Of a DNA stretch of 64,000 nucleotides, positions 24,386-53,944 are shown piece by piece. Every line of letters begins with the position of its first letter. Positions within the stretch are counted from its first letter, which is position 1. The stretch is taken from contig CAYZNS010000002.1 in NCBI GenBank assembly GCA_964479945.1, forward strand, positions 13,172 to 77,171, read 5' to 3'. The notes under the pieces are model-generated. The model had not been told where the DNA came from, searched no databases, and saw only the letters and a program-made list of their open reading frames with translations. The stretch comes from an uncultured Candidatus Saccharibacteria bacterium (GTDB taxonomy: Bacteria; Patescibacteriota; Minisyncoccia; Ryanbacterales; 2-02-FULL-48-12). The position numbers and the translations under genes are program-made.

Positions 24386-24469
24386 GCCGAAGTGGCGGAA
24401 TTGGCAGACGCGCTAGCTTCAGGAGCTAGTATCCGCAAGGATGTGAGGGTTCGAATCCCTCCTTCGGCA
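24386..24469 (+). tRNA. tRNA-Leu(CAG), class II with long variable arm
   Basis: Manual cloverleaf: acceptor gccgaag/cttcggc, D-arm gcg-gaattggcaga-cgc, anticodon arm ctagc-ttCAGga-gctag, 15-nt variable arm, T-arm gaggg-ttcgaat-ccctc, discriminator A. CCA is not encoded. Confidence 0.85.
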
Positions 24470-24597: not shown

Positions 24598-24687
24598 TAT
24601 GTCATTGCGAGCAAAGCGAAGCAATCCCATGAATATCTTAAAAAATTACGGGATTGCCGCGTCGCTTCGCTCCTCGCAATGACAACA
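24598..24687. repeat. family-A palindromic MITE-like element, core-only copy (tgtcattgcgagcaaagcgaagcaatccc ... gggattgc...ctcgcaatgaca)
   Basis: Imperfect ~90-bp palindrome. It yields the spurious ORFs SLRAKRSNP.../VIASEAKQ... and sits between the tRNA block and rnj. Confidence 0.7.
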
Positions 24688-24711
24688 TTCTATTACTAAT
24701 AAATAATCTTT

Positions 24712-26693: not shown

Positions 26694-27695
26694 ATGAACC
26701 ACGGATCTTCAAAAAAACCAATACTACTCTCCGGAGCAAAACCCTCCGGCGAGCTTCACATCGGCAACTACATCGGCGCTATCCGACAATGGATTGCTTT
26801 GCAAGACACGCATGAGACCTACGTGCCCATTGTGGACCTGCACGCACTCACCGAGCCGCAGGATCCGGAGAAATTGCGCGCGCAAATCTTAGAAATCACG
26901 GCCGACTATGTCGCTTTAGGACTTGATCCGGAGCGCGCCGCTATTTTTCTGCAATCCGCCGTGCCCGCGCACGCCCAGCTTATGTGGGTACTTGCCACCA
27001 TTTCCGCCATGGGCGAGCTGGAACGCATGGTGGTGTACAAGGAAAAACTTGAAGAAGGCAAGCCGGCGAACGCGGGACTGTTCACCTACCCCATCCTCAT
27101 GGCGGCGGATATTTTATTGTACAAGCCCACCATCGTGCCCGTTGGCGAGGATCAGCGCCAGCATCTGGAATTTACGCGGACGCTTGCGCGCAAATTCAAC
27201 AAGCGCTTCGGGTTGACGTTCCCGGTCCCCAAAGAATTTAAGCTGGACGCGGGCAAAAAAATTCTCTCGCTCACAGATCCCGCCAAAAAAATGTCTAAGT
27301 CGCACGGCGTAATGTCATATATCGCCCTAGCCGACGCGCCAGAAAAAATACGGCAGAAAATAAAAACGGCCGTTACCGATTCCGGCAGCGCTATCAAATA
27401 CGACACAGTGACAAAACCGGCCATTTCCAATTTGATGGCAATATATCACGCGTTTTGCGGAAAAGAGTTCGCCGCAATTGAAAAAGAATTCGCCGGCAAA
27501 AGTTATAAAGAATTCAAAGAAGCACTCGCGGAGCTGGTAATTGAAAAACTGCGCCCCGTGCAGGAGAAGCGAAAGGAATTACTTGAAAACAAGAGTAACC
27601 TTATCAAAATTCTCGAAGAAGGAGCCGCGAAAGCGAACGCAAAAGCATCGGAGACGCTGGAAGAGGTACATAGGAAGGTGGGGTTGAAAGTATAA
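26694..27695 (+). CDS. trpS: tryptophanyl-tRNA synthetase
   Basis: HIGN motif (GELHIGNYIGA) and KMSKS. Start set at MNHGSSKKPILL. Confidence 0.9.
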   Translation: MNHGSSKKPILLSGAKPSGELHIGNYIGAIRQWIALQDTHETYVPIVDLHALTEPQDPEKLRAQILEITADYVALGLDPERAAIFLQSAVPAHAQLMWVLATISAMGELERMVVYKEKLEEGKPANAGLFTYPILMAADILLYKPTIVPVGEDQRQHLEFTRTLARKFNKRFGLTFPVPKEFKLDAGKKILSLTDPAKKMSKSHGVMSYIALADAPEKIRQKIKTAVTDSGSAIKYDTVTKPAISNLMAIYHAFCGKEFAAIEKEFAGKSYKEFKEALAELVIEKLRPVQEKRKELLENKSNLIKILEEGAAKANAKASETLEEVHRKVGLKV

Positions 27696-27696
27696 C

Positions 27697-28158
27697 TTAT
27701 ACCTCCCGCACTTTGTGCGAAAGAATAGTATTCAAATCCTTAAAATGAAACGTGCCCTGAATGTTCTTTCCCGCAAGCACGAGTGGCAGCCAATGCGGAT
27801 CATCCGCCCACATATTTTGATACGGGATGCTGTCCAGGGAAAACCATTGCGGGCGCATCTCATCTGATTCCTTGGGCTCTCCGGAAAACGTTCTCGCACT
27901 GAATACATGAATCTCCAATGATGGCGCGGAACCATCCTCAAAGGCAAATGTCAGTATGCCGCGCTTTAGCATGGTATGCGGCGTGATACCCGCTTCTTCC
28001 ACAAGTTCTCTGTGCGCCGCTTCCTCAATAGTCTCGCCTGCTTCCACCTTGCCGCCAAACCCGTTCCATTTCCCCAAGCCAAACCCGCGCTTCTTTAGCC
28101 CCAAAAGAATGTGTGCCTCATCGTGAACAACGCAAAGCGTTAATATCTTTTTATTCAT
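27697..28158 (-). CDS. NUDIX hydrolase (MutT/NUDT1-like)
   Basis: Nudix box GGKVEAGETIEEAAHRELVEEAGI. Start at MNKKIL. Confidence 0.7.
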   Translation of the reverse strand: MNKKILTLCVVHDEAHILLGLKKRGFGLGKWNGFGGKVEAGETIEEAAHRELVEEAGITPHTMLKRGILTFAFEDGSAPSLEIHVFSARTFSGEPKESDEMRPQWFSLDSIPYQNMWADDPHWLPLVLAGKNIQGTFHFKDLNTILSHKVREV

Positions 28159-28432
28159 TATGCTTAAAGCCGATAGCGCCCGGCTCATCCGCCGCTTCCA
28201 GCTTGCCGAACGAAGTTTCGTATCTGTCCACCTGCTCGCCCAATGCGCGCAGAAGCCGCTTGGCGTGCCCCGGACTTATAATGATTCGCTCCACCAGCAA
28301 AGCCCCCGGCGGCAGAATATTCATGAAGTCAAACACGAACTCCTCTTTGGTGTGCGAAACCATCACGTTGTTTGCATACCGGCCCTTCAAAACCTCGTCC
28401 GTCGCTTTGATGTTTAGTTTTTGTTGTTCCAT
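28151..28432 (-). CDS. small conserved protein, DUF3467-like
   Basis: 93 aa. MEQQKLNIK...GRYANNVMVSHTKEEFVFDF pattern recalled as DUF3467. Low confidence. Confidence 0.35.
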   Translation of the reverse strand: MEQQKLNIKATDEVLKGRYANNVMVSHTKEEFVFDFMNILPPGALLVERIIISPGHAKRLLRALGEQVDRYETSFGKLEAADEPGAIGFKHNE

Positions 28433-28473
28433 AGTTCCAGTATAACAGGAAATACAACTTTTAGTAAATAACT

Positions 28474-28608
28474 GTAATTACGAAACTCCAAAAACATTGT
28501 CATTGCGAGGAGCGAAGCGACGTGGCAATCCCGTAATTTTCAAGGTATTCACGAGATTGCTTCGCTTTGCTCGCAATGACAATGGGTAGTTTCGTAATTC
28601 AAAGTAAG
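28474..28608. repeat. family-A palindromic element, full-length copy with terminal inverted repeats aattacgaaact/agtttcgtaatt
   Basis: Core gtcattgcgagg...ctcgcaatgac plus the conserved outer segments ttacgaaactc(c)aaaaa and gtttcgtaattcaaagtaag, which are shared with the 63527 copy. Confidence 0.7.
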
Positions 28609-28647
28609 GTATTGTCGGAGAGCATATAAGCGCTGCACAGGGGCATA

Positions 28648-28675
28648 TTGACAAATAAACACACTTTGCTACACT
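28648..28675 (+). promoter_or_regulatory. sigma70-like promoter TTGACA-16-TACACT
   Basis: Consensus -35 with a 4/6 -10. No plus-strand CDS lies downstream, only a 250-nt GC-rich segment and a terminator. Confidence 0.45.
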
Positions 28676-28681
28676 GGTAAC

Positions 28682-28930
28682 TAGATTGTTATGGGGCTTC
28701 TCCGTATCCCTCTCCACTCACAACCCCCAACCCCGAGGGACCGGAGAGCCCCGCCCTTTCGCCCCCCTTGACAGTACCTGACCCTCGGTCCTCGGAGGCG
28801 TGAGTTGTCCGCCTTAGGCGGAAGTGAGATTAGCTCGCGCCTCCCCACCCCCACCCCCGCCGACGCTCGCGGTACCATACCGTTATATTCCGATACGGTA
28901 TCCGAGTGTTGCGGGGGTTCTTTTTTTGCA
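28682..28930 (+). ncRNA. candidate structured ncRNA: GC- and C-rich (ccccacccccaccccc) ~250-nt unit between a promoter and a strong terminator
   Basis: No convincing ORF. Local hairpins at tccgcc-tta-ggcgga and ataccgt-(11 nt)-acggtat. GC content is well above the genome background. Confidence 0.3.
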
Positions 28931-28960
28931 AAAAAGCCGACAAGGTGTCGGACTTTTTTT
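28930..28960. terminator. bidirectional rho-independent terminator aaaaaag-ccgaca-agg-tgtcgg-acttttttt
   Basis: 6-bp stem and 3-nt loop, with an A6 tract upstream and a T7 tract downstream. Confidence 0.7.
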
Positions 28961-28995
28961 ATTTTGAATTGCAAGATGATCCCCTCCTATTATCT

Positions 28996-29112
28996 CCGGG
29001 TGTGCTCCCTCACCAAAAGTTTTGGTGAGGGAGTGTGCCGAGCCGGGCTACTCACAATCCCGCTTTTAGCGGAATGTGCGAAGCTCGGTTAGCCACAATC
29101 CTGACGCTTTAG
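28996..29112. repeat. family-B repeat element (ctccctcaccaaaagttttggtgagggag...agctcggttagccacaatcc)
   Basis: Contains the perfect 17-bp palindrome caccaaaagttttggtg. A second copy lies at 45286..45381 and a related palindromic variant at 37859..37924. Confidence 0.6.
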
Positions 29113-29117
29113 ATTCC

Positions 29118-29468
29118 CTACTTCTTTTTTGGGGGCGACTTCGCCGCTTGCGTTACGTGCTTGGAGATATTCTTCCAGTATCCTTTCAGCTCTTTTGCGA
29201 GCGCGGCCACTTCATCTTTGTCTATGTTCTTTGCACTTTGATACTTTTGGGAAACTTTGTCCACCATCTTTTCGTATGCATCCCCGCTCATGTCGCGCAG
29301 GCCTTCCAATCCGTCCATCACTTCGCCTTTCATGCGAAGCATCCAGCCCTTTATTTTTTTCTTCTGCTTAGGCGCGGCTTTCCCATACAAAAAATACGCG
29401 CCCGCCGCGGCCGCCGCGATTGCGGCTAAACCCAATCCGATACCGCTTGCTTTTTTATTGTTCGCCAT
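29118..29468 (-). CDS. YtxH-like general stress protein
   Basis: 116 aa. N-terminal GIGLGLAAIAAAAAGAYFLY segment and a charged coiled C-terminus. Classic pairing with the adjacent DUF948 gene. Confidence 0.5.
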   Translation of the reverse strand: MANNKKASGIGLGLAAIAAAAAGAYFLYGKAAPKQKKKIKGWMLRMKGEVMDGLEGLRDMSGDAYEKMVDKVSQKYQSAKNIDKDEVAALAKELKGYWKNISKHVTQAAKSPPKKK

Positions 29469-29796
29469 TGTTTTTTTCTTCAGTTATATTGCTATGCTTT
29501 TTTCGTGCCACCGGTTTTCGCGTTCGACCTCTCACCTTTTCCCCCAGAGTGAATAAAACGCTTAAAAATCCCAGCGCATGTTTAAATTTTATGCTTTCTT
29601 CTTTTACAAAGGAACGCGCATCCGCGATATCGCCGCGCAGCGTGTACAATTCCTGTTCCACCACTTCTGAAATACTGCGAAGTATCCGCAACAAACGCAC
29701 GAAATGGTACAGCGCCAAGATAACGGCGCCCGCAACACATACGGCGGCAATTGCCGTTATAAAAAAGAATACATTGGACTGCAAAACTTCACTCAT
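29455..29796 (-). CDS. DUF948/YtxG-like membrane protein
   Basis: 113 aa. N-terminal TM helix then a coiled-coil. Confidence 0.45.
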   Translation of the reverse strand: MSEVLQSNVFFFITAIAAVCVAGAVILALYHFVRLLRILRSISEVVEQELYTLRGDIADARSFVKEESIKFKHALGFLSVLFTLGEKVRGRTRKPVARKKHSNITEEKNNGEQ

Positions 29797-30686
29797 ATTT
29801 TTACTATATCACGTACCAAATGGTCCGCCACTGTTGATAACACTCTGCGCGGCAGCGCGTCGGCTGAAATATCCTGCGCGCCCAGATCAATCGGGTGGTT
29901 CGCATAATCAACCACGAAATAGTCCTCTCTGTTCGTAAACACTATCTCTGCGCTGAATACGTCAAATCCCGTTATGCTATATATTGCCAGGAGTGTTTTT
30001 TCCAACACCGTCGCCGCTGCATTCTCTTCCGGCACATGTCTCAATTCTTCATAAAAATGATTAACCGGATTCCACCGCAATGGAATAATGGCGCCGCACA
30101 CATACAGGGGCCGGAACCATCCCGCGCGTCCGGCAATTACGGCAGGCGTTAAGAACTCCTGCATCAGCGCGGCATCGTTGCCATTCCCCTCCATGAACTT
30201 TGTAACATCTTCCTTGCGCGATGCTGTCATCAAAACATCATTCTCCATGCCTCCGTATGCGGGTTTTATGACGAACGGAACAGTAAATTCCTTGAGCGCG
30301 CGAGGAGCCTCCCGTTTTGCCTCACTAAGCGAATAGACTATGCGCGTTTTGGGTACCGGAATGCCCGCGGACGCGAAAGCCTTGTGAAGCGCTATCTTGC
30401 TTCCCCACCGCGCGGCTTGCGTTGGATTGTTTACCACGCGCACGCCGCGCTCGGCCAACATCCACGCGATCTGCGCATAGGGCGGATAATCTATGGAGGA
30501 GCGATCCAAGTACCAGCGATACGCAACGCTGCCATTTCTAATTTCTTCAAACCGTTCGCTGATATTCTGATAGGTGATCTCGTCAACAGAAAGCTTGGCG
30601 CTTCGCAACTCTTTTTTCAGGAGTGATACAAAAACTGCGTCTATCGGACTCGCCCACCCGATACCAACGTCATATATCTTTGTCAT
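29793..30686 (-). CDS. ATP-grasp domain protein (RimK/glutathione-synthetase-like)
   Basis: Start set at MTKIYDVGIGW (ATG at 30686). ATP-grasp-like core FVIKPAYGGMENDV. Confidence 0.5.
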   Translation of the reverse strand: MTKIYDVGIGWASPIDAVFVSLLKKELRSAKLSVDEITYQNISERFEEIRNGSVAYRWYLDRSSIDYPPYAQIAWMLAERGVRVVNNPTQAARWGSKIALHKAFASAGIPVPKTRIVYSLSEAKREAPRALKEFTVPFVIKPAYGGMENDVLMTASRKEDVTKFMEGNGNDAALMQEFLTPAVIAGRAGWFRPLYVCGAIIPLRWNPVNHFYEELRHVPEENAAATVLEKTLLAIYSITGFDVFSAEIVFTNREDYFVVDYANHPIDLGAQDISADALPRRVLSTVADHLVRDIVKI

Positions 30687-30848
30687 ACATAAACTATAAG
30701 ACTTTTCACACCTTATTCCCATATTACGAACAGTGTCCGAGTTGTGCATAACCCAATCCCCCACTATACTATCCCTATGGCAAATCCTCCACCGCAACAA
30801 TCGTCCGGGTCCGTTTCTCTGCACCCCGCCTCATTTGCAGGGGTACGC

Positions 30849-33455
30849 ATGCCGCCGCAAAACGTGGAAGCCGAAATGTCCGTTTTAGGATCGCTCATGC
30901 TAGACAAAGACGCATTCAATAAAACCGCCGATATCTTAAAACCGGCTTGTTTTTATCGTGACCAGCATCGGGTTATTTATGAGGCAATGCAGGAATTATT
31001 TGAAAAGCGCGTGCCGATTGACGTGCTTTCCACATCCAACCGGCTCCGTGAAAAAAAGAAATTGGAAGAAACCGGCGGGGTCAGTTACTTAACGCAGCTC
31101 GTGAATATGGTGCCAACTGCGAGCAATGTTGCGCATTATGCCGATATCGTAAACCGCAAATACGTGCTGCGAAGCATTATCTCCATATCGCAGGACATAA
31201 GCCAATTGGGCTATCAGGAATCCGACGACGTAGATATATTGCTGGACGAGGCAGAGCGAAAAATTTTTAGCATCTCGCACGGCTCGCTCCGCCAGCGGTT
31301 CGCCCCCGTTTCCGAAGCGCTGGAAGCCGCATGGGATCGCATAGACAATCTTCAAAAAGGCGAGCATCTGCGTGGCGTCCCCACAGGCTTTACTCAGCTG
31401 GACAATCTTCTCTCCGGACTCCAAAAATCGGATATGATTGTCCTTGCCGCGCGGCCTTCTTTCGGTAAAACGAGTCTCGCACTTGATATAGCGCGTAAAG
31501 CGGCCGTCAAGGAAAACACGCCAGTCGGCATATTTAGCCTGGAGATGTCCACCGAACAGGTTATTGACCGCCTTCTTGCGGCAGAAGCCAATGTGGATTC
31601 ATGGCGGCTCCGCACGGGCCGGCTTTCCCATGATTCCGATGATTTTCTACGCATCCGCGAAGCGCTGGACCGCCTTTCCAAAGCGCCAATTTTCATAGAC
31701 GACGAGCCATCCAATAACATTCTTCAAATGCGCGCGATGGCCCGGCGGCTGCAAACCGAACACGGGCTGGGGCTTATTATCGTGGACTATCTGCAACTTA
31801 TTACCTACCACAAAGGAACCTCCGACAGCTTGGTACGCGAAGTTACGGAAATCTCCCGCGCATTGAAAGGCCTCGCGCGCGAACTCGAAGTGCCTGTGCT
31901 CGCCATCTCCCAGCTTTCGCGCGCCGTAGAGCAGCGCCATCCGCCGATACCGAAATTGTCGGATTTGCGGGAATCCGGATGTCTTACGGGAGATACTCTC
32001 CTGACCAATGCCGATACGGGGAAACGCACCCCGATCAAAGAACTGGTCGGTAAAACAAATATTCCGATATTTTCATTTACCGCGGACCATAAAATAGAAC
32101 GACGCCTTATTTCCAACGTATTTCCAAACGGGAATAAAAAAATATATCAAATCACAACGAGAAGCGGGCGCACCATAAAAGCGTCAGAGAATCATCCATT
32201 TTTTACCATACACGGTTGGCGCGCTCTTAAAACATTGACTGCAGGCATGCATGTTGCCGTCCCGCGCCACATAGCACCAATGCATTCCGTTTCTGTAATG
32301 TCTGATTCGGAACTTACCCTGCTTGCTCATCTTATCGGAGACGGATGTATTCTTCCTCGCCAACCCTTCCATTACACCAGCGCAGATGAATATAATATTG
32401 CCGTTGTAAGCGCATCAGCAAACAAACTTTTTGGCATACAGCCGCGCACGATCCGCCAAAAAAATTGGTATCATATATATCTGCCATCGCCCTATCGTCT
32501 GACACGCAATAAAAGACATCCAATATCAAATTGGTATAAAAAGATGGGGCTTCCTTTATCAAGATCATATGAAAAAACTCTCCCGGATTCTCTATTCCAA
32601 TGCGGTAATAAGAAAATTCAACTCTTCCTCCATCATCTTTGGGCAACAGACGGAAATATATCTTATAAAAATATTCCTGCCAGGAAAACTGCAGGGTCAA
32701 TATATTATGCTACTTCAAGCACTGTTCTCGCAGAACAAGTACAACATCTTCTCTTGCGTCTTGGTATTTTTAGCACTCTGCGGACAATCCCGCATAAAAA
32801 ATACCGGCCTATGTATCATGTATACATAGAAGGCAGTGTCATGCAAATCCGTTTCTGTGAACTCATAGGATCATATGGAAAGCGAGGCAGTATCGTTCCC
32901 GAACTTCTCAAAAAACTGAAATTAATCAATCCAAATACGAATACGGATATCATACCACGCGAAGCATGGCGTATCCTTATTGAACCGATAAAAGAATCTT
33001 TACAGATAAGTTGGCGGGATTTCGCAAAAAAAATTGACATGGCGTACTGCGGAAGCGCTCTCTTTAAAAACGGGTTGTCTCGTAATAGAATGCTACGCGT
33101 AGCAGAGGCTTTTAGTAGCGAACCATTATGTAAAATAGCACAGTCGGATATTTATTGGGATAAAATAGAATCTATTATCTCTCTTGGAGAAGAAGAAGTT
33201 TTTGATGCGACGGTGCCCGAAACCCATAATTTTATCGCAAATGATATTGTTGTCCATAACAGTATTGAACAAGATGCGGATGTCGTCATGTTCCTTTATC
33301 GGGAGGATAGATACAAAGACGACTCCGCGCAAAAAAACGTAACGGAAGTCCAGATTGCAAAACACCGCAATGGCCCCTTGGGCAAAGTAAGCTTATATTT
33401 TAATCCGAATACTATCTCGTTCTCCGATATCGACAGGCGGGTTGAGGAAGTGTAA
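30849..33455 (+). CDS. dnaB: replicative DNA helicase DnaB interrupted by an intein
   Basis: Start at MPPQNVEAEMSVLGSLM. Walker A ARPSFGKTSLAL and the H4 motif SDLRESG|SIEQDAD are split by the intein. Extein ~476 aa. Confidence 0.85.
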   Translation: MPPQNVEAEMSVLGSLMLDKDAFNKTADILKPACFYRDQHRVIYEAMQELFEKRVPIDVLSTSNRLREKKKLEETGGVSYLTQLVNMVPTASNVAHYADIVNRKYVLRSIISISQDISQLGYQESDDVDILLDEAERKIFSISHGSLRQRFAPVSEALEAAWDRIDNLQKGEHLRGVPTGFTQLDNLLSGLQKSDMIVLAARPSFGKTSLALDIARKAAVKENTPVGIFSLEMSTEQVIDRLLAAEANVDSWRLRTGRLSHDSDDFLRIREALDRLSKAPIFIDDEPSNNILQMRAMARRLQTEHGLGLIIVDYLQLITYHKGTSDSLVREVTEISRALKGLARELEVPVLAISQLSRAVEQRHPPIPKLSDLRESGCLTGDTLLTNADTGKRTPIKELVGKTNIPIFSFTADHKIERRLISNVFPNGNKKIYQITTRSGRTIKASENHPFFTIHGWRALKTLTAGMHVAVPRHIAPMHSVSVMSDSELTLLAHLIGDGCILPRQPFHYTSADEYNIAVVSASANKLFGIQPRTIRQKNWYHIYLPSPYRLTRNKRHPISNWYKKMGLPLSRSYEKTLPDSLFQCGNKKIQLFLHHLWATDGNISYKNIPARKTAGSIYYATSSTVLAEQVQHLLLRLGIFSTLRTIPHKKYRPMYHVYIEGSVMQIRFCELIGSYGKRGSIVPELLKKLKLINPNTNTDIIPREAWRILIEPIKESLQISWRDFAKKIDMAYCGSALFKNGLSRNRMLRVAEAFSSEPLCKIAQSDIYWDKIESIISLGEEEVFDATVPETHNFIANDIVVHNSIEQDADVVMFLYREDRYKDDSAQKNVTEVQIAKHRNGPLGKVSLYFNPNTISFSDIDRRVEEV
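31980..33260 (+). other. DnaB intein (427 aa) with LAGLIDADG homing-endonuclease domain, inserted at the DnaB-b site
   Basis: Begins at Cys (CLTGDTLLT) and ends VVHN followed by Ser. Block B TIKASENHPFFT. LAGLIDADG-like motifs LLAHLIGDGCI and LHHLWATDGNI. Confidence 0.8.
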
Positions 33456-34114: not shown

Positions 34115-34172
34115 CTGCTGTCAAACACTAAGTGTCTGACAAGCTTGTCAGACACTTAGTGTTTGACAGCAG
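34115..34172. terminator. perfect 58-bp palindrome (29-bp arms) between convergent recR and rplU; overlaps the last 17 nt of rplU
   Basis: Every position was checked manually: position i pairs with 34287-i across 34115-34172. It contains two copies of the TGTCAAACACT half-site motif. The right arm encodes TAVKH* of L21. Confidence 0.7.
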
Positions 34173-34542: not shown

Positions 34543-35139
34543 TTAGAGGCCTTTAGACATAACACTCGTGGAAGGAGGAGATGATGGCGGAGGTGGTGGT
34601 GGAATAGTCTCTTCCGGCAGCAGCCAATCAATGCCGGCATCAGAAACGAAAAGTCTGATGCCAACTTCCCATGCAAAAAGCTCTCTGCCAGTTGAGTCCT
34701 TCACATATAAGTCAAACTTATAGCCGCCACCAAAACCACAAGTCTCCCCGGTTGTGGTAGCGCCGCCATAATCGGCAATCAACACAAAATGATTGCCCTC
34801 ACCACACGCGCCGGTCACTAGCGGACAAGCGTATCCACACACAGGTTGCCACAAGCAAACACGCTCATCATCCCCTCTTCCCAAAATCAGCTCCTCATCC
34901 ACCACAAAGATTTGGGGATCAACGAATGACATCCCTAAGTCATTACTCAACGTGTCGCCCAAAACCCGAAATGTTCCGCCCGGGGGACAATAAAATTTCC
35001 AGGCATCCCCGTTACGCTGCCCCCGTTCATTTCTCCCTACGTTGGGCAAGTCGTTTTGCCGGCGCACGCGCTCGCCGAAAGACAAGCCGGGGATAGTAAC
35101 TATAAGAGAAATAAACAAAGCCGAACAAATCCATCTCAT
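34543..35139 (-). CDS. secreted Cys-rich hypothetical protein with Pro-rich C-terminus
   Basis: Signal peptide MRWICSALFISLIVTIPGLSFG. Multiple Cys. PPPPPPSSPPSTS tail. Confidence 0.35.
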   Translation of the reverse strand: MRWICSALFISLIVTIPGLSFGERVRRQNDLPNVGRNERGQRNGDAWKFYCPPGGTFRVLGDTLSNDLGMSFVDPQIFVVDEELILGRGDDERVCLWQPVCGYACPLVTGACGEGNHFVLIADYGGATTTGETCGFGGGYKFDLYVKDSTGRELFAWEVGIRLFVSDAGIDWLLPEETIPPPPPPSSPPSTSVMSKGL

Positions 35140-46081: not shown

Positions 46082-49000
46082 TTATGGATTTACCAAAAAC
46101 GTGGTGGGGTTCTCTGTCATGGTAAGATAATTAACACGCGCGCGATTAGCATAATCAATCCCCAGATAACTATAATATGCCCCGACGCGATAGAGTTTGG
46201 CAGGATCAAGAATAGGACCATCATACGCTTTTGAACCAGTCTGACTGCTGATAGGAACCGAAACAGTGCTTCGATATACCTGGGTTCTGCTTACTTCTTC
46301 ATGAACATGAATCGAGTAACCGGCTGTAATGGTGCTTGCCCAGTGAGCGGGCCATCCGCTTTGCGGCACGGTCCACTGAATGGTAAACGGCTGCAGGACC
46401 GGCGAGAACGCGGAGGTTGGACTTATAATACGCGTAGAAGATAATGCATGCTGATGCAGCATATCGGAAATAATGGTTTCAATGCCTGTGGAATCAACTA
46501 CCGCCACATAATAACTATATTCCCCGATGGGAACAGTATTGCCATAGTCAAATATGCGCGATGTTGCGGTCCATGCTTCATAATCTGTCCTGCAGGAAAA
46601 CCCGAGCGACCAATTTAGATCAGTGGTAACGCTCGTTCCGCACGCGGTACTGGCAAGTGGAAATGATCCACTCAACGCAAATTGAGTTTCTCCCGGTTTT
46701 TTCTCATAGAGCCGAATAGCGCGCACATCAGTAAATTTTGTTCTATCAAACCCGAAGCGAACAGACCGCACAAAGCGATGTGAATCGTACTGACTCCCTC
46801 CCCAATATCCGCCTTGATCTGATTTGACTTCTATACTCAATACTTTTGTAGCACTCGCTCCCGCGCTGTCGGTAACACCCGCGGTAAATGTATAGGTCCC
46901 GGGTACCACCAATGGCCATTGTGAAATCTGGCCGGTTGCAGCAAGTTTAAGCCCATTGGGGAAATTGCCTCCCACAATCTGCCATTGATAGGGCGCAACG
47001 CCTCCGGTTGCCGAAAGCGCTACACTACGCAGGGATCCATCTTGATTAACTCCAAAATAAGATATACCCCACGCGCCAGCTGGTAAATTAGTAGTTGTAA
47101 TAGAAAGCGTTGATGTGGTCAAAGCCGTAGAATCTATCCAAATAGTGGTTACGACCTCGGGCATTGCGTTATAAGTATCCCAAGCCAATGAGTCTTGATT
47201 CATGATAATACGGCCGGCATCAATGAGCACAATATACTTCTTTGCGGGATCAAGCGCTGGACCATCATAGACAAAGGATCCGGTTATGGATCCGGCGGGC
47301 GCATAATTATACATAAATTTCTGCCAATACACCTGCCGCGTATCGCTATCATAAAGAGCAATGCGATAACTAGGCGCTGTACCTACAGGCCAACCACTCG
47401 TAAGTGTCCATTGAAATGTTATAGGAGAACCGATTGTTTGAGCGCCAGATGGGCTTACAATTTTTACCTTCGGCGTTGCATACTTCTTGATTATTTTTGA
47501 TGAGGCACGCGCAAATCCGGATGGAGGAAGGATTGTTTCATTACCTGAAGAATCAACAGCTGCAACGTAATACTCGTAGGTACCAACCAGGTAGGTTGAT
47601 GAATGAAATTGGCTGGTGCGCCGGGCGGTCCATTGATCCAATGAGCCAAGTGGATCAGAGCGTCCACAGCCAAAATCCAATGCCCAACCGGTGACGCTAA
47701 CAACATTACTGTTACACCTCCATGACACGAGTAGCGAAAAGGTTGCCACAGAGTTAAACGCACTGTCTCCCGGCCGCTTTTCATAAATGCGTAGCGATTG
47801 TACAGTTGGATACGACGAGGTGGCGAAAGTGAAATTGACCCGATCAATAAATGTATCCGGCAGCCATCCATTGTGCCATGTGGCAGAAGCGGGTGCGTAA
47901 CCGACTCTGAAAGGACCGTCACTTGCATCCTTTATAGCTGGATCAGCCGAGTCAGAAATCTCAATCGTAAATCCAGTAAGGTTCTGCATGTTAGCCGGAA
48001 CACTCCAAGTATAGCTGAATGTACCGCTTTCCGCGTTCTGGGGAATTTTGGTTCCCAATGTCGTGAAGAGATTTCCATCCTTAAGTATTTTAATGGCAAC
48101 AGTTTTGGACACTAAACCGCTTGAGGTCCATGAAATAGTAACCATTTCATCAACCATCAAAAGTTCTCCGCTGTTTGGATAGAGTACCATTATGCTGGAT
48201 GCAGGAGCCGACGAAAGAGATGCAACGATCGGAGCCCCCGCAATCTCAATGGCTAACACCCGAGATCCGATGACACTTCTTCCATCAGTGGCCTCCACTG
48301 TGAACTCGGCTACCCCCGCGATGGAAGGCATACCGGAGATAACGCCGCTTGAAGAATCAAGAGCAAGACCTGAAGGCAATGAACCGACTTTCACACTCCA
48401 ACGGAGCGGCGCAACACCATTTACCGCCGTAAGTGCTGCACGGTATTCTTTCCCGACAACACCTGCGGGCAATCGTTCGTGGAAAAAGATATCACCCTTG
48501 AGATTAGAATCGCCAGGAACGAGATTTGAAAATGCTGAAGCAAAGGCCACAAATCGACCATCCGCGCTGATTGCTGGATCCCCGAAGATATGCGCAGCCG
48601 AACCCTGTTGGCCGCTATCAGAAATACTTACGCGGCTTGTCCGTTTTGTCTCCCGGTCATACACAAAAATATCGGGTTGGGAATTGGTATCTCCGACTAT
48701 GAGGTTTGAGGCGTAAGATTCAAAAACCATATAGCGGCCATCAGCACTGATTGTAGTATTTACGCTATGACCATTCCCTTCTCCTCCCATCGAGGAAACA
48801 CTCACCCGAGTCGTGGTCTTAGCAACACGATCGTGGACAAACACATCCCCCACGCCATTAGCATCACCAGAGATAAGATCAGATGCGCTAGAAACAAACG
48901 TGACATAGCGGCCGTCAGAACTTATTGATGGCGCATAAAGAGAGCTTGGCCCTGCGATACCGGTACTCTGGAGGCCACTATTCGTGATACTCACACGCGT

Positions 49001-52000
49001 AGTCTCTTTTGTATCTCGATTATGCACAAACACATCGCCAAGACCATTTGTATCACCGGAAACAAGCCCCGTAGAAAAAGAAAGGAATGCCACAAACTTG
49101 CCATTGGCGCTGATGGCCGGATAAAAACTTGATGCTCCAAATCCCTGACCACCGCTTGAAGAAACGCTCACGCGGGTTGTTGTTCTGGTCTCTCTATCGT
49201 GAATAAAGATATCCTGCTGTAAGTTGGTATCACCCGTAACCAAATTTGATGCATCAGAAGCAAAAACAATATATCGCCCGTCGGCGCTCAAACTCGGCGT
49301 CTGACTCACGCCATTTGACTGACTACCACCGTCGGCTATGCTCACGCGGGTTGTTGTTCTGGTCTCTCTATCGTGAATAAAGATATCCGACATGCCATTG
49401 GTGTCATCTGACACAAGGTTGGTTGCTGTTGAGCTAAAAACTATATATCGCCCGTCAGCGCTTATTACTGGTACATCATCTGTTGCTGGTGATGGACCAT
49501 TTGCCTGTGTGCCGTCATTTGCTACATTCACACGGGTTGTTGTTTTGGTTTCTCGATCATGAATGAAGATATCTGACACGCCATTGGTGTCATCTGATAC
49601 CAAGTTAGTGGCTATTGAGCTAAATACCACATACCGTCCATTACTACTTATAGCGGGGCCGCCGCTACTTATATTGTTTCCCTGCGTGCCATTACTTGAT
49701 ACACTTACGCGGGTCGTGGCAGGCGGTGTGATATAAATTGCGGCGCTTGATACGGTTGGCGCAACTGTGATACTAAAGTTCTCGGTGTCACTCAAACCAT
49801 CCCTATCAGAAACTTTGGCAGTAAAATTGAAAGTGCCAGATGTAGTAGGATTGCCCGAAATGCTTCCCTGGTCATTAACGGTGGTAAGCGCAAGGCCAGC
49901 CGGAAGCGCGCCGGCCGCAATGCTCCAGGCAAACGGCGGCGTTCCGCTTTGCACAGAAATTTTTGCGCTATACAGTGTTCCAACTGTTCCGCCTGGTAAC
50001 TGTGCAAAGACAATTTCAGGAACCGGCTGCGGGGCAGTTGTTGTTTGCGTAGAAACTGGCGCAGGAACCGGTCCGTTGGAAAATACCGCGCCGCGTGCAA
50101 CAGAAAGAACAGCACCTCCTATTTCTACATGGGGAATCAGTTGATTAACAAAACCTCCCCATGCGTAACTCCCCGGGCCGTCAGTAATCAGTGCCCAGTT
50201 GGCGCCGGAGTCGGATGATTTATACAACCCATCGCCTTGGCATGTGGTATAGGTAATCGCGTACATCGCTTCGCTTTCAGCGCTACCCAAAACTCGACCG
50301 TTTTGGAATGAAACTGGCAGCGTTCCTCCCCGAATCCATGTAGAGCCGTGATCCATTGAAGTATATGCAACAAGATGTGTTGATCCCCGTTCTACTGTTC
50401 CGCCAGTGTAGGGATCTTCTGGAATTTTCCCGATAAAGAACAGTTGTCCATCTTTATTTTTAGCAATTCTGTACTGGTGGGGATTGCCGCCCCAGTAAAG
50501 ATACGCGCTGAACGTTTTTGTCAAGGTTCCATTGATCCAGCGATAGATGCCGCGGTACTGCTTTGAATCGCTTACTTGTATATCTTCTGAATCCATAAAT
50601 ACCAGTGCGCCATCGTCCGCCTCCACGATGGATTCTAACCATCTGGAATGCGTGAATAATTTCTGCCACGTTGCCCCGCTATCGGCGCTGCGATATACCT
50701 CGGCAGTGCCATAGAGTGAGAGACCAACGGTGGCGACAAGCACGTTGTCTCGCTGCACAAGAAGATTATTCACTACTACGGAATCGGACGGCGAAAGCGC
50801 AGACGGCGGCTTTTGCACGAATATCCATGTGGCGCCACCGTCATTACTTTTCCAAAGTCGCGAGCCGCCGGCAAATAACACACCATTTTTATCCTCTGCG
50901 AGGGAGCGTATAGAATCATAGGTGCGATTCGGGTCAGATACAACATAGGGGATATTCACCAATGTCCACGTTTTCCCGTTATCAGATGATTTGCCGATAA
51001 CTGGAACTTTCGCGGTTATTGTTCCCGCGCTGTCTTTTACTGATTTCACTCCGCCCGCGATTAACGCGCCGTTTTTAGTTTTGATCATGTCTGCCATGAC
51101 GATATTTTCCAGATTATTTTTTGTTGAATCGCTTGTAGAAAAATTCCATGTTGCCGGATCCCATCCCGTTTCAAAACTTCCTACCCATTGAAAGTCGGGG
51201 GTAGCTGGACACGTAAGGATTGCCGTGGACGATGCTGGCGCAATTGTGATACTAAAGTTCTCGGTGTCACTCAAACCATCCCTATCAGAAACTTTGGCGG
51301 TGAAATTGAAAGTGCCAGCGGTGATAGGATTGCCTGAAATGCTTCCTTGGCCATCAACGGTGGCAAGCGCAAGGCCAGCCGGAAGCGCGCCGGCCGCAAC
51401 ACTCCATGTAAACGGCGGCGTTCCGCTTTGCACAGAGATTTTTGCGCTATATGGTGTGCCAACTGTTCCGCCTGGCAACTGTGCAAAGACAATTTCGGGA
51501 ACAGGATTGTTTGCTACTGAAAACAAAATAGGATAATCATCCGTGTTGACGTTGCCCGCGCTATCCTGACATCGGACATTATATCCAAATCCTGTTGGGT
51601 ACGACGGACTTATCGACATCACCGATACAACCGAGGAATGAGATGTGGAATTCGTATTGGAAAATGTATTTGCCATTTGCTCATAACTTACCCCTGACGC
51701 ATCCGCAGAATATTTACAAGTAGCATTTTCATCAGTATTCAATGATATAGTGACGGATGTCGTGCCTGCGGGAAACGTGCCGGAAGGCGCTTCATTGAAA
51801 CGCACGGGAGGAGTGATATCCGTAGAAGGCGGCAGAACCGATCCGGTTATAGTGGAGGCAGAACCTGAAAACCAGCGAACGTGAACGGCGCTGTTTCCTT
51901 CAAAACAATATTGATATTGTTCTGACTCTGCAAGCGCTGTTTTCGTTTGTCCAAATCCTCGCAGACTGCGAGATTTACTATTTATGCATGCCTGAAAAAC

Positions 52001-52939
52001 ATTCTCTCCCGTTTTTGCCGCGAGTCCGACCACTCTCCCTGGAGTAACACGGTCAAAACAAGGCCGCGTAGTGGAACTTGCGCAATTACTGCCGGTAAGA
52101 CCAGAAAGCATTGCTCTGGTTTTAGGCCCCACAATGCCAACCGCCTCAATGCCATTCTTTTCTTGAAAGCGCTTTACGGCCGCTTCCGTCGCGGGCCCAT
52201 AAAACCCCGTTGCAAGGCCTTGGGGATAAACATTTTTATCTTGCGCCAAAAATTCCTGTAATTGTTTTACATCATCTCCGGTAGATCCGCGTTGTAATGT
52301 TCTCGTAAGCGCGAGTTCTGACATAGGAGATGCTGATCTTTGAATTCTTGAAACAACTTGCTGTTGAGATTGTAATTCCGCAACTTGTGTTTGTAATAAT
52401 TGGATCCGGTTTTGTAATTCTTTAGTAAGCTGTTCTTGAACTTCCCCGATTTGCGTTCGCAAGTTTTGTATTACTTCTTTTGTCTCTTGCGATGATTGCT
52501 GTTGGACAACTTCCGGTTGAATAACAGGAGACTGCGGACATGTATAACAAACTTCCGCTTTTGGCGAAGACCCAAGTTGAGTAGGTGTTGCTTCTTCCGC
52601 CGGTGTTGCAGACTGATCTGTTCCCACATAAGGCTGTGCCGGAGTTGCCTGTTGCGCTGGTTGTGTGGAAGTAGGCGGCGTGCTTACCGGAAAAGAAGGA
52701 ACAATAGGAGTTATTTTTTTATCCGGTGTCGCAGGAGTTGCGGGAGTACTGGTTCCTCTCGCTGGTTGAGCAGGAGTAGCAGCCGCAAACAACGACAAAA
52801 AAGCCTGCTGTAAAGACGCAAGCTGTGATTGTAATTGTTGGATGGTATGGAAATCGTTATGATCCGCAAACGCGGCAATTGGCGAGAATGCTAATGCAAT
52901 AAAAAAACTGCTTGATAAAAAAACATGCTTTATCTTCAT
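46082..52939 (-). CDS. 2285-aa secreted multidomain surface protein with coiled-coil, peptidoglycan-binding, putative-Ig (cadherin-like), BNR/Asp-box propeller and ~9 PD40/TolB-like repeats
   Basis: Signal peptide. PG_binding_1-like LQRGSTGDDVKQLQEFL...GPATEAAVKRFQ. Repeated SxDxGxTW Asp-boxes. Repeated DIFIHDRETxTTTRVSV WD40-like blades. Two Ig-like domains near-identical at the DNA level. Confidence 0.7.
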   Translation of the reverse strand: MKIKHVFLSSSFFIALAFSPIAAFADHNDFHTIQQLQSQLASLQQAFLSLFAAATPAQPARGTSTPATPATPDKKITPIVPSFPVSTPPTSTQPAQQATPAQPYVGTDQSATPAEEATPTQLGSSPKAEVCYTCPQSPVIQPEVVQQQSSQETKEVIQNLRTQIGEVQEQLTKELQNRIQLLQTQVAELQSQQQVVSRIQRSASPMSELALTRTLQRGSTGDDVKQLQEFLAQDKNVYPQGLATGFYGPATEAAVKRFQEKNGIEAVGIVGPKTRAMLSGLTGSNCASSTTRPCFDRVTPGRVVGLAAKTGENVFQACINSKSRSLRGFGQTKTALAESEQYQYCFEGNSAVHVRWFSGSASTITGSVLPPSTDITPPVRFNEAPSGTFPAGTTSVTISLNTDENATCKYSADASGVSYEQMANTFSNTNSTSHSSVVSVMSISPSYPTGFGYNVRCQDSAGNVNTDDYPILFSVANNPVPEIVFAQLPGGTVGTPYSAKISVQSGTPPFTWSVAAGALPAGLALATVDGQGSISGNPITAGTFNFTAKVSDRDGLSDTENFSITIAPASSTAILTCPATPDFQWVGSFETGWDPATWNFSTSDSTKNNLENIVMADMIKTKNGALIAGGVKSVKDSAGTITAKVPVIGKSSDNGKTWTLVNIPYVVSDPNRTYDSIRSLAEDKNGVLFAGGSRLWKSNDGGATWIFVQKPPSALSPSDSVVVNNLLVQRDNVLVATVGLSLYGTAEVYRSADSGATWQKLFTHSRWLESIVEADDGALVFMDSEDIQVSDSKQYRGIYRWINGTLTKTFSAYLYWGGNPHQYRIAKNKDGQLFFIGKIPEDPYTGGTVERGSTHLVAYTSMDHGSTWIRGGTLPVSFQNGRVLGSAESEAMYAITYTTCQGDGLYKSSDSGANWALITDGPGSYAWGGFVNQLIPHVEIGGAVLSVARGAVFSNGPVPAPVSTQTTTAPQPVPEIVFAQLPGGTVGTLYSAKISVQSGTPPFAWSIAAGALPAGLALTTVNDQGSISGNPTTSGTFNFTAKVSDRDGLSDTENFSITVAPTVSSAAIYITPPATTRVSVSSNGTQGNNISSGGPAISSNGRYVVFSSIATNLVSDDTNGVSDIFIHDRETKTTTRVNVANDGTQANGPSPATDDVPVISADGRYIVFSSTATNLVSDDTNGMSDIFIHDRETRTTTRVSIADGGSQSNGVSQTPSLSADGRYIVFASDASNLVTGDTNLQQDIFIHDRETRTTTRVSVSSSGGQGFGASSFYPAISANGKFVAFLSFSTGLVSGDTNGLGDVFVHNRDTKETTRVSITNSGLQSTGIAGPSSLYAPSISSDGRYVTFVSSASDLISGDANGVGDVFVHDRVAKTTTRVSVSSMGGEGNGHSVNTTISADGRYMVFESYASNLIVGDTNSQPDIFVYDRETKRTSRVSISDSGQQGSAAHIFGDPAISADGRFVAFASAFSNLVPGDSNLKGDIFFHERLPAGVVGKEYRAALTAVNGVAPLRWSVKVGSLPSGLALDSSSGVISGMPSIAGVAEFTVEATDGRSVIGSRVLAIEIAGAPIVASLSSAPASSIMVLYPNSGELLMVDEMVTISWTSSGLVSKTVAIKILKDGNLFTTLGTKIPQNAESGTFSYTWSVPANMQNLTGFTIEISDSADPAIKDASDGPFRVGYAPASATWHNGWLPDTFIDRVNFTFATSSYPTVQSLRIYEKRPGDSAFNSVATFSLLVSWRCNSNVVSVTGWALDFGCGRSDPLGSLDQWTARRTSQFHSSTYLVGTYEYYVAAVDSSGNETILPPSGFARASSKIIKKYATPKVKIVSPSGAQTIGSPITFQWTLTSGWPVGTAPSYRIALYDSDTRQVYWQKFMYNYAPAGSITGSFVYDGPALDPAKKYIVLIDAGRIIMNQDSLAWDTYNAMPEVVTTIWIDSTALTTSTLSITTTNLPAGAWGISYFGVNQDGSLRSVALSATGGVAPYQWQIVGGNFPNGLKLAATGQISQWPLVVPGTYTFTAGVTDSAGASATKVLSIEVKSDQGGYWGGSQYDSHRFVRSVRFGFDRTKFTDVRAIRLYEKKPGETQFALSGSFPLASTACGTSVTTDLNWSLGFSCRTDYEAWTATSRIFDYGNTVPIGEYSYYVAVVDSTGIETIISDMLHQHALSSTRIISPTSAFSPVLQPFTIQWTVPQSGWPAHWASTITAGYSIHVHEEVSRTQVYRSTVSVPISSQTGSKAYDGPILDPAKLYRVGAYYSYLGIDYANRARVNYLTMTENPTTFLVNP
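49780..50045. repeat. intragenic near-identical ~270-bp duplication (copy 1; copy 2 at ~51245-51510)
   Basis: Plus-strand ORF-track translations of the two regions are ~90% identical. They encode VPEIVFAQLPGGTVGT...DRDGLSDTENFSIT. Confidence 0.7.
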
Positions 52940-53152: not shown

Positions 53153-53944
53153 CTATTTCATACTGTGCGTTCTATATATCTCTACAGAAGCAGTTGCCTC
53201 CCGATATTGGCAATAGTCGCATCCCTTTCTTTGAACAGGCATATCATCCGAATCTAGACATAGCTTGATGTCTCCAAGCATTCCTTCAACCCATCCGTCA
53301 TCTCCGGTATAAGGAATAAGTTTTACATCAAACTCCAGCTTGCCGTCAAAAGCGGCGCGGTCTGTGCGCCCGTTGCAGTACACAAAATACCCCGTGTCAG
53401 ACACTAAGTGTTTGACATTACCATGCCGCAGGAGCCATTGGTATATTTCCATCTGCCGCTTGTAGCCCATCTGCCAATCGGCATCTATATTCACCTCCGC
53501 ATCTTTGGCGGTACTTTTATAATCAACCACGATCAGTTCTTTTTTTGGGTTTACCCAGATGTCATCTACGGCGCCCGTAACCAAAAAGTTTGTCGGCTTG
53601 TGCAAAAACTGCACGCCCTTAAAATTCTCCCGCCATTCGTCCATCATTTCGTGCTGAAATGGCACCGCGTCCACGCCATAATGTTCCATCAAAGGGTGCT
53701 TGGTATTTGCCGCGCGATGAATGTCAAATTCTTTTTTTAAAAGTTTGTCCACCGCGGAGTTCAGATTAAATGGAAACCCGGGTGGGCGTCCGATACCCAG
53801 CCGCCGGTCCAGATAAAAACACCGTGGACACTCGATGTAAAGCTCAATTTTGGAACGCGAAAGCTTAAACGGCTCGCTGCCGCCCGGCGCATACACATTC
53901 CTCGTCCGGTTTGCATGGTAGTATTGGGACATATTCGTAATCAA
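53153..53944 (-). CDS. PD-(D/E)xK nuclease with Cas4/AddB-like Fe-S cysteine cluster
   Basis: N-terminal ECPRC, IVVDYKS (D-x-K) and C-terminal C...CDYC. Carries an in-frame copy of the TGTCAGACACTAAGTGTTTGACA palindrome at 53395-53417. Confidence 0.5.
   Translation of the reverse strand: MITNMSQYYHANRTRNVYAPGGSEPFKLSRSKIELYIECPRCFYLDRRLGIGRPPGFPFNLNSAVDKLLKKEFDIHRAANTKHPLMEHYGVDAVPFQHEMMDEWRENFKGVQFLHKPTNFLVTGAVDDIWVNPKKELIVVDYKSTAKDAEVNIDADWQMGYKRQMEIYQWLLRHGNVKHLVSDTGYFVYCNGRTDRAAFDGKLEFDVKLIPYTGDDGWVEGMLGDIKLCLDSDDMPVQRKGCDYCQYREATASVEIYRTHSMK

Follow-up and report, generated by a model that had tools for sequence, protein, structure and literature searches.

We identified a candidate stand-alone gene for a small non-coding RNA (sRNA) at positions 28683–28928 of the plus strand in a 64-kb window, which is the whole stretch of DNA analysed here, and propose with moderate confidence that the exposed C-rich tracts of its transcript likely pair with G-rich sites in mRNAs. 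The gene looks like a lineage-restricted one of an uncultivated groundwater bacterium (Patescibacteria), specifying a long hairpin with a large C-rich loop. The features to which the text refers, with stems as predicted, are the following:

28648–28675, plus strand: sigma-70-type promoter (−35 TTGACA at 28648–53, 16-nt spacer, −10 TACACT at 28670–75)
28683–28928, plus strand: predicted primary transcript of the candidate sRNA, ~245 nt, as deduced from the promoter and terminator T1
28685–28775, plus strand: closing stem P1 (28685–91 pairs with 28769–75), surrounding P2 and the C-rich junction
28693–28752, plus strand: core hairpin P2, ~17 bp, with a 22-nt apical loop at 28713–34, UCCACUCACAACCCCCAACCCC
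28753–28768, plus strand: C-rich single-stranded junction motif GCCCUUUCGCCCCCCU, within a 30-nt block that is identical in the closest relative, L134
28794–28844, plus strand: hairpin P3, GGAGGCGUGAG...CUCGCGCCUCC, part of the lineage-specific 3′ extension
28840–28861, plus strand: second C-rich tract, CCUCCCCACCCCCACCCCCGCC, unpaired at ~28845–53
28854–28928, plus strand: T1, the intrinsic terminator of the unit itself, a long hairpin with a CCCCC/GGGGG base and then UUCUUUUUUU
28930–28960, both strands: T2, a bidirectional terminator with its hairpin at 28937–51
Open reading frames in the unit: TTG 28686–28781 (31 aa), ATG 28691 (26 aa) and TTG 28805–29092 (95 aa), with no Pfam match

The sequence-only reading of this region had described an orphan promoter that leads through a non-coding structured segment to a terminator, and this outline is supported by the lack of an Rfam family, of a repeat origin and of a conserved ORF, as well as by comparison with relatives. 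The orphan promoter, TTGACA-16-TACACT, is present as described. It matches the consensus at 10 of 12 positions, carries the TG of an extended −10 at 28667–8 inside its 16-nt spacer, and was the top site in a promoter scan of 27500–30000; the predicted start lies at ~28682–85, downstream of TACACT. Consensus-type promoter matches were not enriched window-wide (18 vs 14.5 ± 3.1 in shuffles), and what makes the promoter credible is its conservation in relatives, not the consensus match alone. The segment behind it is, as had been noticed, richer in GC and in C than its surroundings, with a GC content of 0.65 and a GC skew of −0.31 at 28700–28899 vs a GC content of 0.39–0.44 just upstream, and the C-rich string ccccacccccacccccgcc sits at ~28843–61. 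No plus-strand gene follows after 28960.

The bidirectional terminator that had been placed at the end of the segment was indeed detected on both strands (28937–51). It is not, however, the single terminator closing the unit, since a separate terminator upstream of it, T1, which acts on the plus strand only, had been overlooked. T2 mainly serves the convergent gene for a 116-aa protein (29118–29468, minus strand) and is a backstop for the unit. The 3′ end of T1 has TGCGGGGGTTCTTTTT in common with the relatives L013 and L100/L101 and GGGGGTTCTTTTTTT in common with L134, and these sequences occur only at the syntenic site. T2 is kept in L134 as well, where its stem differs in sequence and is still complementary.

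The plus strand at 28682–28962 was predicted to fold with a minimum free energy of −122.9 kcal/mol (z = −7.7), and none of 200 shuffles did as well. The body without the terminators (28683–28853) gave z = −5.7 on the plus strand and only −1.3 on the minus strand; thus the structure is strand-specific and belongs to a plus-strand RNA. An RNA from the minus strand was rejected, as that strand lacks both a promoter and a U-run for T1, and the z of the body is only the −1.3 just given. In the predicted RNA, C makes up 44% of the unpaired positions and G 4%, and the P2 apical loop is 64% C and 0% G. Two further single-stranded C-rich tracts are present in the copy of the window besides this loop. 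The junction motif GCCCUUUCGCCCCCCU, whose CCTTTCGCCCC part is common to L129, had no other occurrence in the window or in 135 loci. The interior of P3 shows 27% identity to L134 and is unalignable. L134 and L013 have an analogous GGAGGU...ACCUCC / GCCUCCA stem, and GCCUCC..CCACC..CCCC tracts resembling the second C-rich tract were found in all relatives.

The genes on either side of the unit, 685 nt apart and both on the minus strand, encode a DUF3467 protein (28151–28432) and the 116-aa protein, which has no Pfam family; with no same-strand gene upstream, the unit is free-standing and divergent from DUF3467. Judged by the homologues of both proteins, the organism belongs to Patescibacteria/Parcubacteria. 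The unit is single-copy within the window, and dispersed repeats at 28490–28613 and 28995–29109 merely flank it; the suspicion that the region might be a degraded cluster of one repeat family (family B) is thereby dispelled, and an origin of the unit as a repeat or MITE was rejected, with one copy where several would be expected. The flanking repeats themselves fall in two families of short, partly palindromic, MITE-like elements that recur in other intergenic regions (copies at 24600–24694, 63538–63662, 45285–45380 and 37859–37920) and are missing from the matching spacer of L134. Identical copies of the unit, from the same organism, were found in several groundwater metagenomes. Four independent metagenome assemblies of this organism have contigs ending inside the unit, at 28790, 28821 and 28867/28868, within the segment that is non-homologous to L134, which points either to a 3′ module that is replaced between strains or to difficulties in sequencing through the C/G runs.

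Other parts of the window hold features of separate interest. A DnaB helicase gene at 30744–33455 (plus strand) contains an intein, which includes a homing-endonuclease domain of the LAGLIDADG type. A perfect intergenic palindrome, TGTCAAACACTAAGTGT(C/T)TGACA, occurs at 34115–34172, 53393–53417 and 58882–58906, where it might serve as an operator or represent a repeat resembling a terminator. A very large ORF of ~2285 aa (46081–52939, minus strand) contains internal direct repeats of 155–270 nt, at 49137–49651 and 49757–51505.

No known RNA family accounts for the unit. A search with Rfam 15 gave nothing at the gathering score in the whole window, the locally best match having E = 0.19 and 21 bits vs a gathering score of 40 or more, and the homologous units of L134, L129, L013, L126 and L101 matched no family either. 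The tmRNA, SRP, 6S and RNase P RNAs, like any other Rfam family, were therefore rejected on the negative Rfam result, ARAGORN also reporting no tmRNA. The likeness to tmRNA (ssrA) is limited to the first six bases, GGGGCU, which pair with AGCCCC 50 nt downstream to form the base of P2. The unit has no tRNA-like domain, T-arm, CCA end or tag reading frame, so the earlier remark that a tmRNA 3′ end is missing was correct; ARAGORN found only a tRNA-Leu at 24386, and Rfam gave no tmRNA even at E ≤ 10.

The unit does have several attributes of trans-acting sRNAs with C-rich loops, which are a functional class and not a homology family: a promoter and a Rho-independent terminator of its own, no conserved ORF, and C-rich, G-poor tracts in single-stranded loops that are conserved in six lineages. 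One member of this class is the 6C RNA of Actinobacteria (RF01066; B11/6C in mycobacteria), a small, independently transcribed RNA without an ORF, whose C-rich hairpin loops pair with G-rich targets and which ends in an intrinsic terminator. Our unit shares with it the C-rich loops, the intrinsic terminator, the lack of an ORF and, by prediction, the independent transcription. It differs in occurring in Patescibacteria, in its far larger loops (17–25 nt), in the enclosing stem P1 and in its variable 3′ extension, and it gave no Rfam match at permissive thresholds in a library that should include the 6C model. RsaE/RoxS of Firmicutes (RF01820) and the UCCC-motif sRNAs of Staphylococcus bear several unpaired C-rich motifs and have stand-alone promoters and terminators; they are presumed to act by pairing with G-rich regions, and RsaE mainly masks Shine-Dalgarno sites. 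The presence of several unpaired C-rich motifs in one RNA with its own promoter and terminator is common to these sRNAs and our unit, whereas there is no similarity to RsaE/RoxS in sequence or by covariance model, the unit is far less conserved and confined to a narrow clade, and the Shine-Dalgarno sites that RsaE masks are nearly lacking in this genome. A third comparison is offered by DapZ and MicL of enterobacteria, which are sRNAs from mRNA 3′ UTRs with an internal promoter. In the relative L009, an upstream PG_binding_1 gene has a stop codon that overlaps with the −35 box, and the terminator hairpin of that gene, bearing the seed loop, would be the sRNA, whereas the unit of the window has no upstream gene on the same strand. 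The best reading is that the unit would resemble 6C or RsaE/RoxS in its way of working without belonging to either family.

To compare the region among relatives, we used contigs encoding close homologues of the two flanking proteins. A homologous unit was found at the syntenic place, by the DUF3467 and/or the 116-aa gene, in six related Patescibacteria lineages. It adjoins DUF3467 in L134, L129–133, L013, L126 and L100/101, and the 116-aa gene in L009–12 and L014. The contigs with the unit and the protein identities of a neighbour are as follows:

L134: unit present, neighbouring 116-aa gene with 92% identity (closest relative)
L129–133: unit present, neighbouring DUF3467 with 78% identity
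L013: unit present, neighbouring DUF3467 with 78% identity
L126: unit present, neighbouring DUF3467 with 81% identity
L100/101: unit present, neighbouring DUF3467 with 81% identity
L009–12: unit present, neighbouring 116-aa gene with 80% identity
L014: unit present, neighbouring 116-aa gene with 75% identity

The unit was not found in the close relatives L102, L128, L135 and L015–17, and L127 retains only a T1-like hairpin. No homologue was detected by nhmmer/blastn, by a scan for promoter and composition or by a covariance model in ~100 further DUF3467 loci (680 kb) that are more distantly related. Since it is absent from several close relatives and from these distant loci, the unit belongs to a narrow clade and is dispensable. 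A scan of viral contigs gave only chance 15-mer matches. In L134, the G-rich complement of the unit is annotated in public data as a 94-aa gene (625–906), which is a spurious antisense ORF; calls of this kind could hide more homologues in protein databases.

What the lineages share is the promoter (5 of 6) and a hairpin of ~20 bp. The window, L134, L129, L009–12 and the upstream copy of L013 have a promoter of the form TTGACAAA...TGC-NANANT in a matching position, and a perfect TTGACA-16-TATAAT is present in L126 and in the second copy of L013. In the comparison with L134, the promoter, positions 28683–28778 and the 3′ ends of the terminators are conserved. Identity reaches 86% at 28735–28778, where one 30-nt block is identical, and is 50% in the P2 loop, which has an 8-nt indel; at 28779–28853 it falls to the random level of 27%, and the 3′ half (28779–28905) is unalignable. 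Of the unit, only the 5′ ~100 nt (28683–28778) and the terminators are conserved, and 28779–28905 is replaced in L134.

The RNAalifold consensus of the 5′ domains of the window and L134 comprises P1 and P2 with 24 pairs and none broken, 2 of them changed on both sides and kept and 3 changed on one side and kept. All pairs of P1 are retained, with A-U becoming U-G (both sides) and U-G becoming U-A, and P2 shows one compensatory change, C-G to U-A; when P1 and P2 were defined by hand, 23 of 24 pairs were retained in L134. In six lineages (the window, L134, L009, L013, L014 and L129) we found a hairpin of 19–28 pairs with an apical loop of 17–25 nt that is 52–72% C and 0–12% G, examples of the loop being UCCACUCACAACCCCCAACCCC, UAGCCUCCGCACCCACACCACCCCC and CGCCUCCGACCACCCCC. 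The P2-type stems differ between lineages (GGGGCUUCUCCG, GAGGACCA, CGGGGAUCAGG, GGAGAUACUC), each being complementary to its own partner, and the loop sequence drifts while its C-richness persists. With 2 to 6 diverged sequences, the covariation of P1/P2 between lineages is no more than suggestive.

When only the window and L134 were used to train a covariance model, the hairpin of L009/L010 was recovered on the expected strand and at the expected site with 20.3 bits (E = 9e-4), and L013 was the second-best match (E = 0.5). L129 and L014 were not recovered by this model, and their homology therefore rests on synteny and shared motifs; L129, which MAFFT aligned to the 5′ domain ambiguously, was used for architecture only. 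The body of L134 folds weakly better than shuffles (z = −1.9). Overall, comparison with the homologous intergenic regions, proposed earlier as a check, showed a promoter that is kept, a hairpin with compensated changes and a loop that stays C-rich.

Taking these observations together, we infer that the unit is probably transcribed and would act in trans on targets. The strong and conserved sigma-70 promoter would drive an RNA of ~245 nt, with T1 ending transcription. Its functional core would be the 5′ domain, in which P1 encloses P2 with its G-free, C-rich 22-nt loop, followed by the single-stranded GCCCUUUCGCCCCCC junction, and to this the copy of the window would add the lineage-specific 3′ extension with P3 and a second CCUCCCCACCCCCACCCCC tract. 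The exposed C-rich tracts may serve as seeds that pair with G-rich mRNA sites and alter translation or stability. Target scans over the ~60 genes of the 64-kb window gave no convincing G-rich target. A GGAG-type Shine-Dalgarno core was present in only 2 of 49 crude gene calls, both encoding proteins without a Pfam family, and because the genome appears nearly free of Shine-Dalgarno sites, a simple model of Shine-Dalgarno masking is doubtful. Places in the window that illustrate this survey are 28432–28468 (minus strand), 34543–35139 (minus strand) and 57352–57933 (plus strand). Many genes look leaderless, and the TATACT −10 box of the DUF3467 gene ends 6 nt before its ATG.

Perhaps the unit has no function of its own, an explanation that we hold to be unlikely, yet worth weighing. 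The hairpins would then be leftover terminators amid GC-rich debris, with a fortuitous or relic promoter, in a rearrangement-prone spacer filled with mobile repeats, and the hairpin of L009 and L014 would be no more than the terminator of the upstream PG_binding_1 gene. In these two relatives the hairpin does lie directly 3′ of a same-strand gene, and it has a U-run in L009, while a separate terminator hairpin comes after it in L014; the window, L134, L129 and L013, however, have no upstream plus-strand gene to terminate. Promoter-like matches are not rare in the genome, but the perfect TTGACA and the TG-extended −10 are kept in five lineages where the neighbouring non-coding sequence is not. 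Debris would fit the loss of the unit in several relatives, the lone T1-like hairpin of L127, the MITE-like repeats at the flanks and a 3′ half that is not conserved. It fits less well with stem changes that are compensated, and terminators need neither loops of 17–25 nt nor near-G-free ones with 52–72% C.

It is also conceivable, though we judge it quite improbable, that the same RNA titrates a protein that binds poly(C), for example one of the KH or cold-shock type, via its C-rich tracts, as an RsmY/Z- or CsrB-like sponge. The RsmY/Z and CsrB sponges have GGA motifs where the candidate RNA has C-rich ones. The motifs CUCCCCACC and CCCAACCCC recur in loop and pre-terminator positions in both the window and L134, but the C-rich motifs have no regular spacing, and no candidate binding protein is encoded beside the unit. 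A loop whose composition is kept better than its exact sequence would suit protein binding, as would the failure to find an mRNA target in the window of a Shine-Dalgarno-poor genome, although this absence of targets is judged on 64 kb only.

We see only a slim chance that the unit is instead the mRNA of a protein of ~22–39 aa with a conserved ...F-A-P... motif, or a dual-function RNA. In L013 and L126, an ATG preceded at 5–6 nt by GGAGG opens a 22-codon ORF, the two ORFs having R-x-G-P...F-A-[PS] in common, and the codons for F-A-P-L differ between L126 and the window; the nucleotide identity of the window and L126, however, extends beyond the stop codon (CCTGACCCTC), and in L013, L134 and the window alike the GGAGG is paired to a CCUCC motif within a stem. 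Open frames cover the same block in the window (TTG 28686–28781, 31 aa), L134 and L129, in an organism that appears to initiate mostly without Shine-Dalgarno sites, but the window and L129 have neither an ATG nor a ribosome-binding site in the F-A-P frame. The sole ATG (28691) is shared with L134, yet there it reads the identical 30-nt block in another frame because of the 8-nt loop indel. Substitutions between the window and L134 gave flat mod-3 counts with no excess at third positions, the 95-aa TTG frame (28805–29092) runs through both terminators, and none of the frames has a Pfam match. The earlier statement that no credible ORF exists is thus borne out by the shifted frame, the missing codon periodicity and the lack of Pfam matches, and a small-protein gene in the window was rejected on the frame shift relative to L134 and the lack of substitution periodicity. 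In the relatives, the 22-codon ORFs preceded by GGAGG and ATG (MARDGPFSILQPSFASTTMVAG, MNTRAGPMLDVHRFKMFAPLTS; L013 reverse ~926–1064 and L126 reverse ~2779–2940) could encode small proteins or belong to dual-function RNAs.

A cis-acting element, either an orphaned leader or attenuator of riboswitch type or a read-through antisense to the convergent 116-aa gene, is very improbable: the promoter, short ORF and terminator of L126 do lie directly upstream of a same-strand DUF4446 gene, in the layout of an attenuator, but no same-strand gene follows the unit in the window, L134, L129, L013 or L009, two consecutive terminators block read-through, and no riboswitch or leader family was matched. A DUF4446 leader was rejected on the lack of a DUF4446 gene in the window and of a same-strand downstream gene in these five lineages, as was a riboswitch or attenuator, for which only L126 has such a gene.

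Our searches of the literature on sRNAs and regulatory RNAs of Patescibacteria and on DUF3467 found nothing relevant. It is a speculative reading, and an unlikely one at present, that with this unit a family of regulatory RNAs is recognised in Patescibacteria (CPR) for the first time, namely a modular 'C-loop' RNA with swapped 3′ modules and an action other than the ordinary masking of ribosome-binding sites. In such an RNA, a conserved module of promoter and hairpin would present the GCCUCC..CCACC..CCCC loop, with the 3′ modules being swapped even between strains, and its partners, in organisms nearly devoid of Shine-Dalgarno sites, might for instance be the few mRNAs led by GGAGG, a protein or a ribosomal component.

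Taken alone, a candidate sRNA that is dispensable and confined to a narrow clade is a common kind of finding. It would be somewhat more interesting if an unusual way of acting lay behind the scarcity of Shine-Dalgarno sites around it and behind its 3′ half, which is modular and variable between strains. Patescibacteria are ultra-small, uncultivated bacteria with minimal genomes, and their genes, as seen here, mostly have no Shine-Dalgarno site or are leaderless. If the unit is indeed a conserved sRNA with a strong promoter and a C-rich effector loop, its covariance model could seed a new Rfam family, and the RNA would be an entry point to post-transcriptional control in Patescibacteria.
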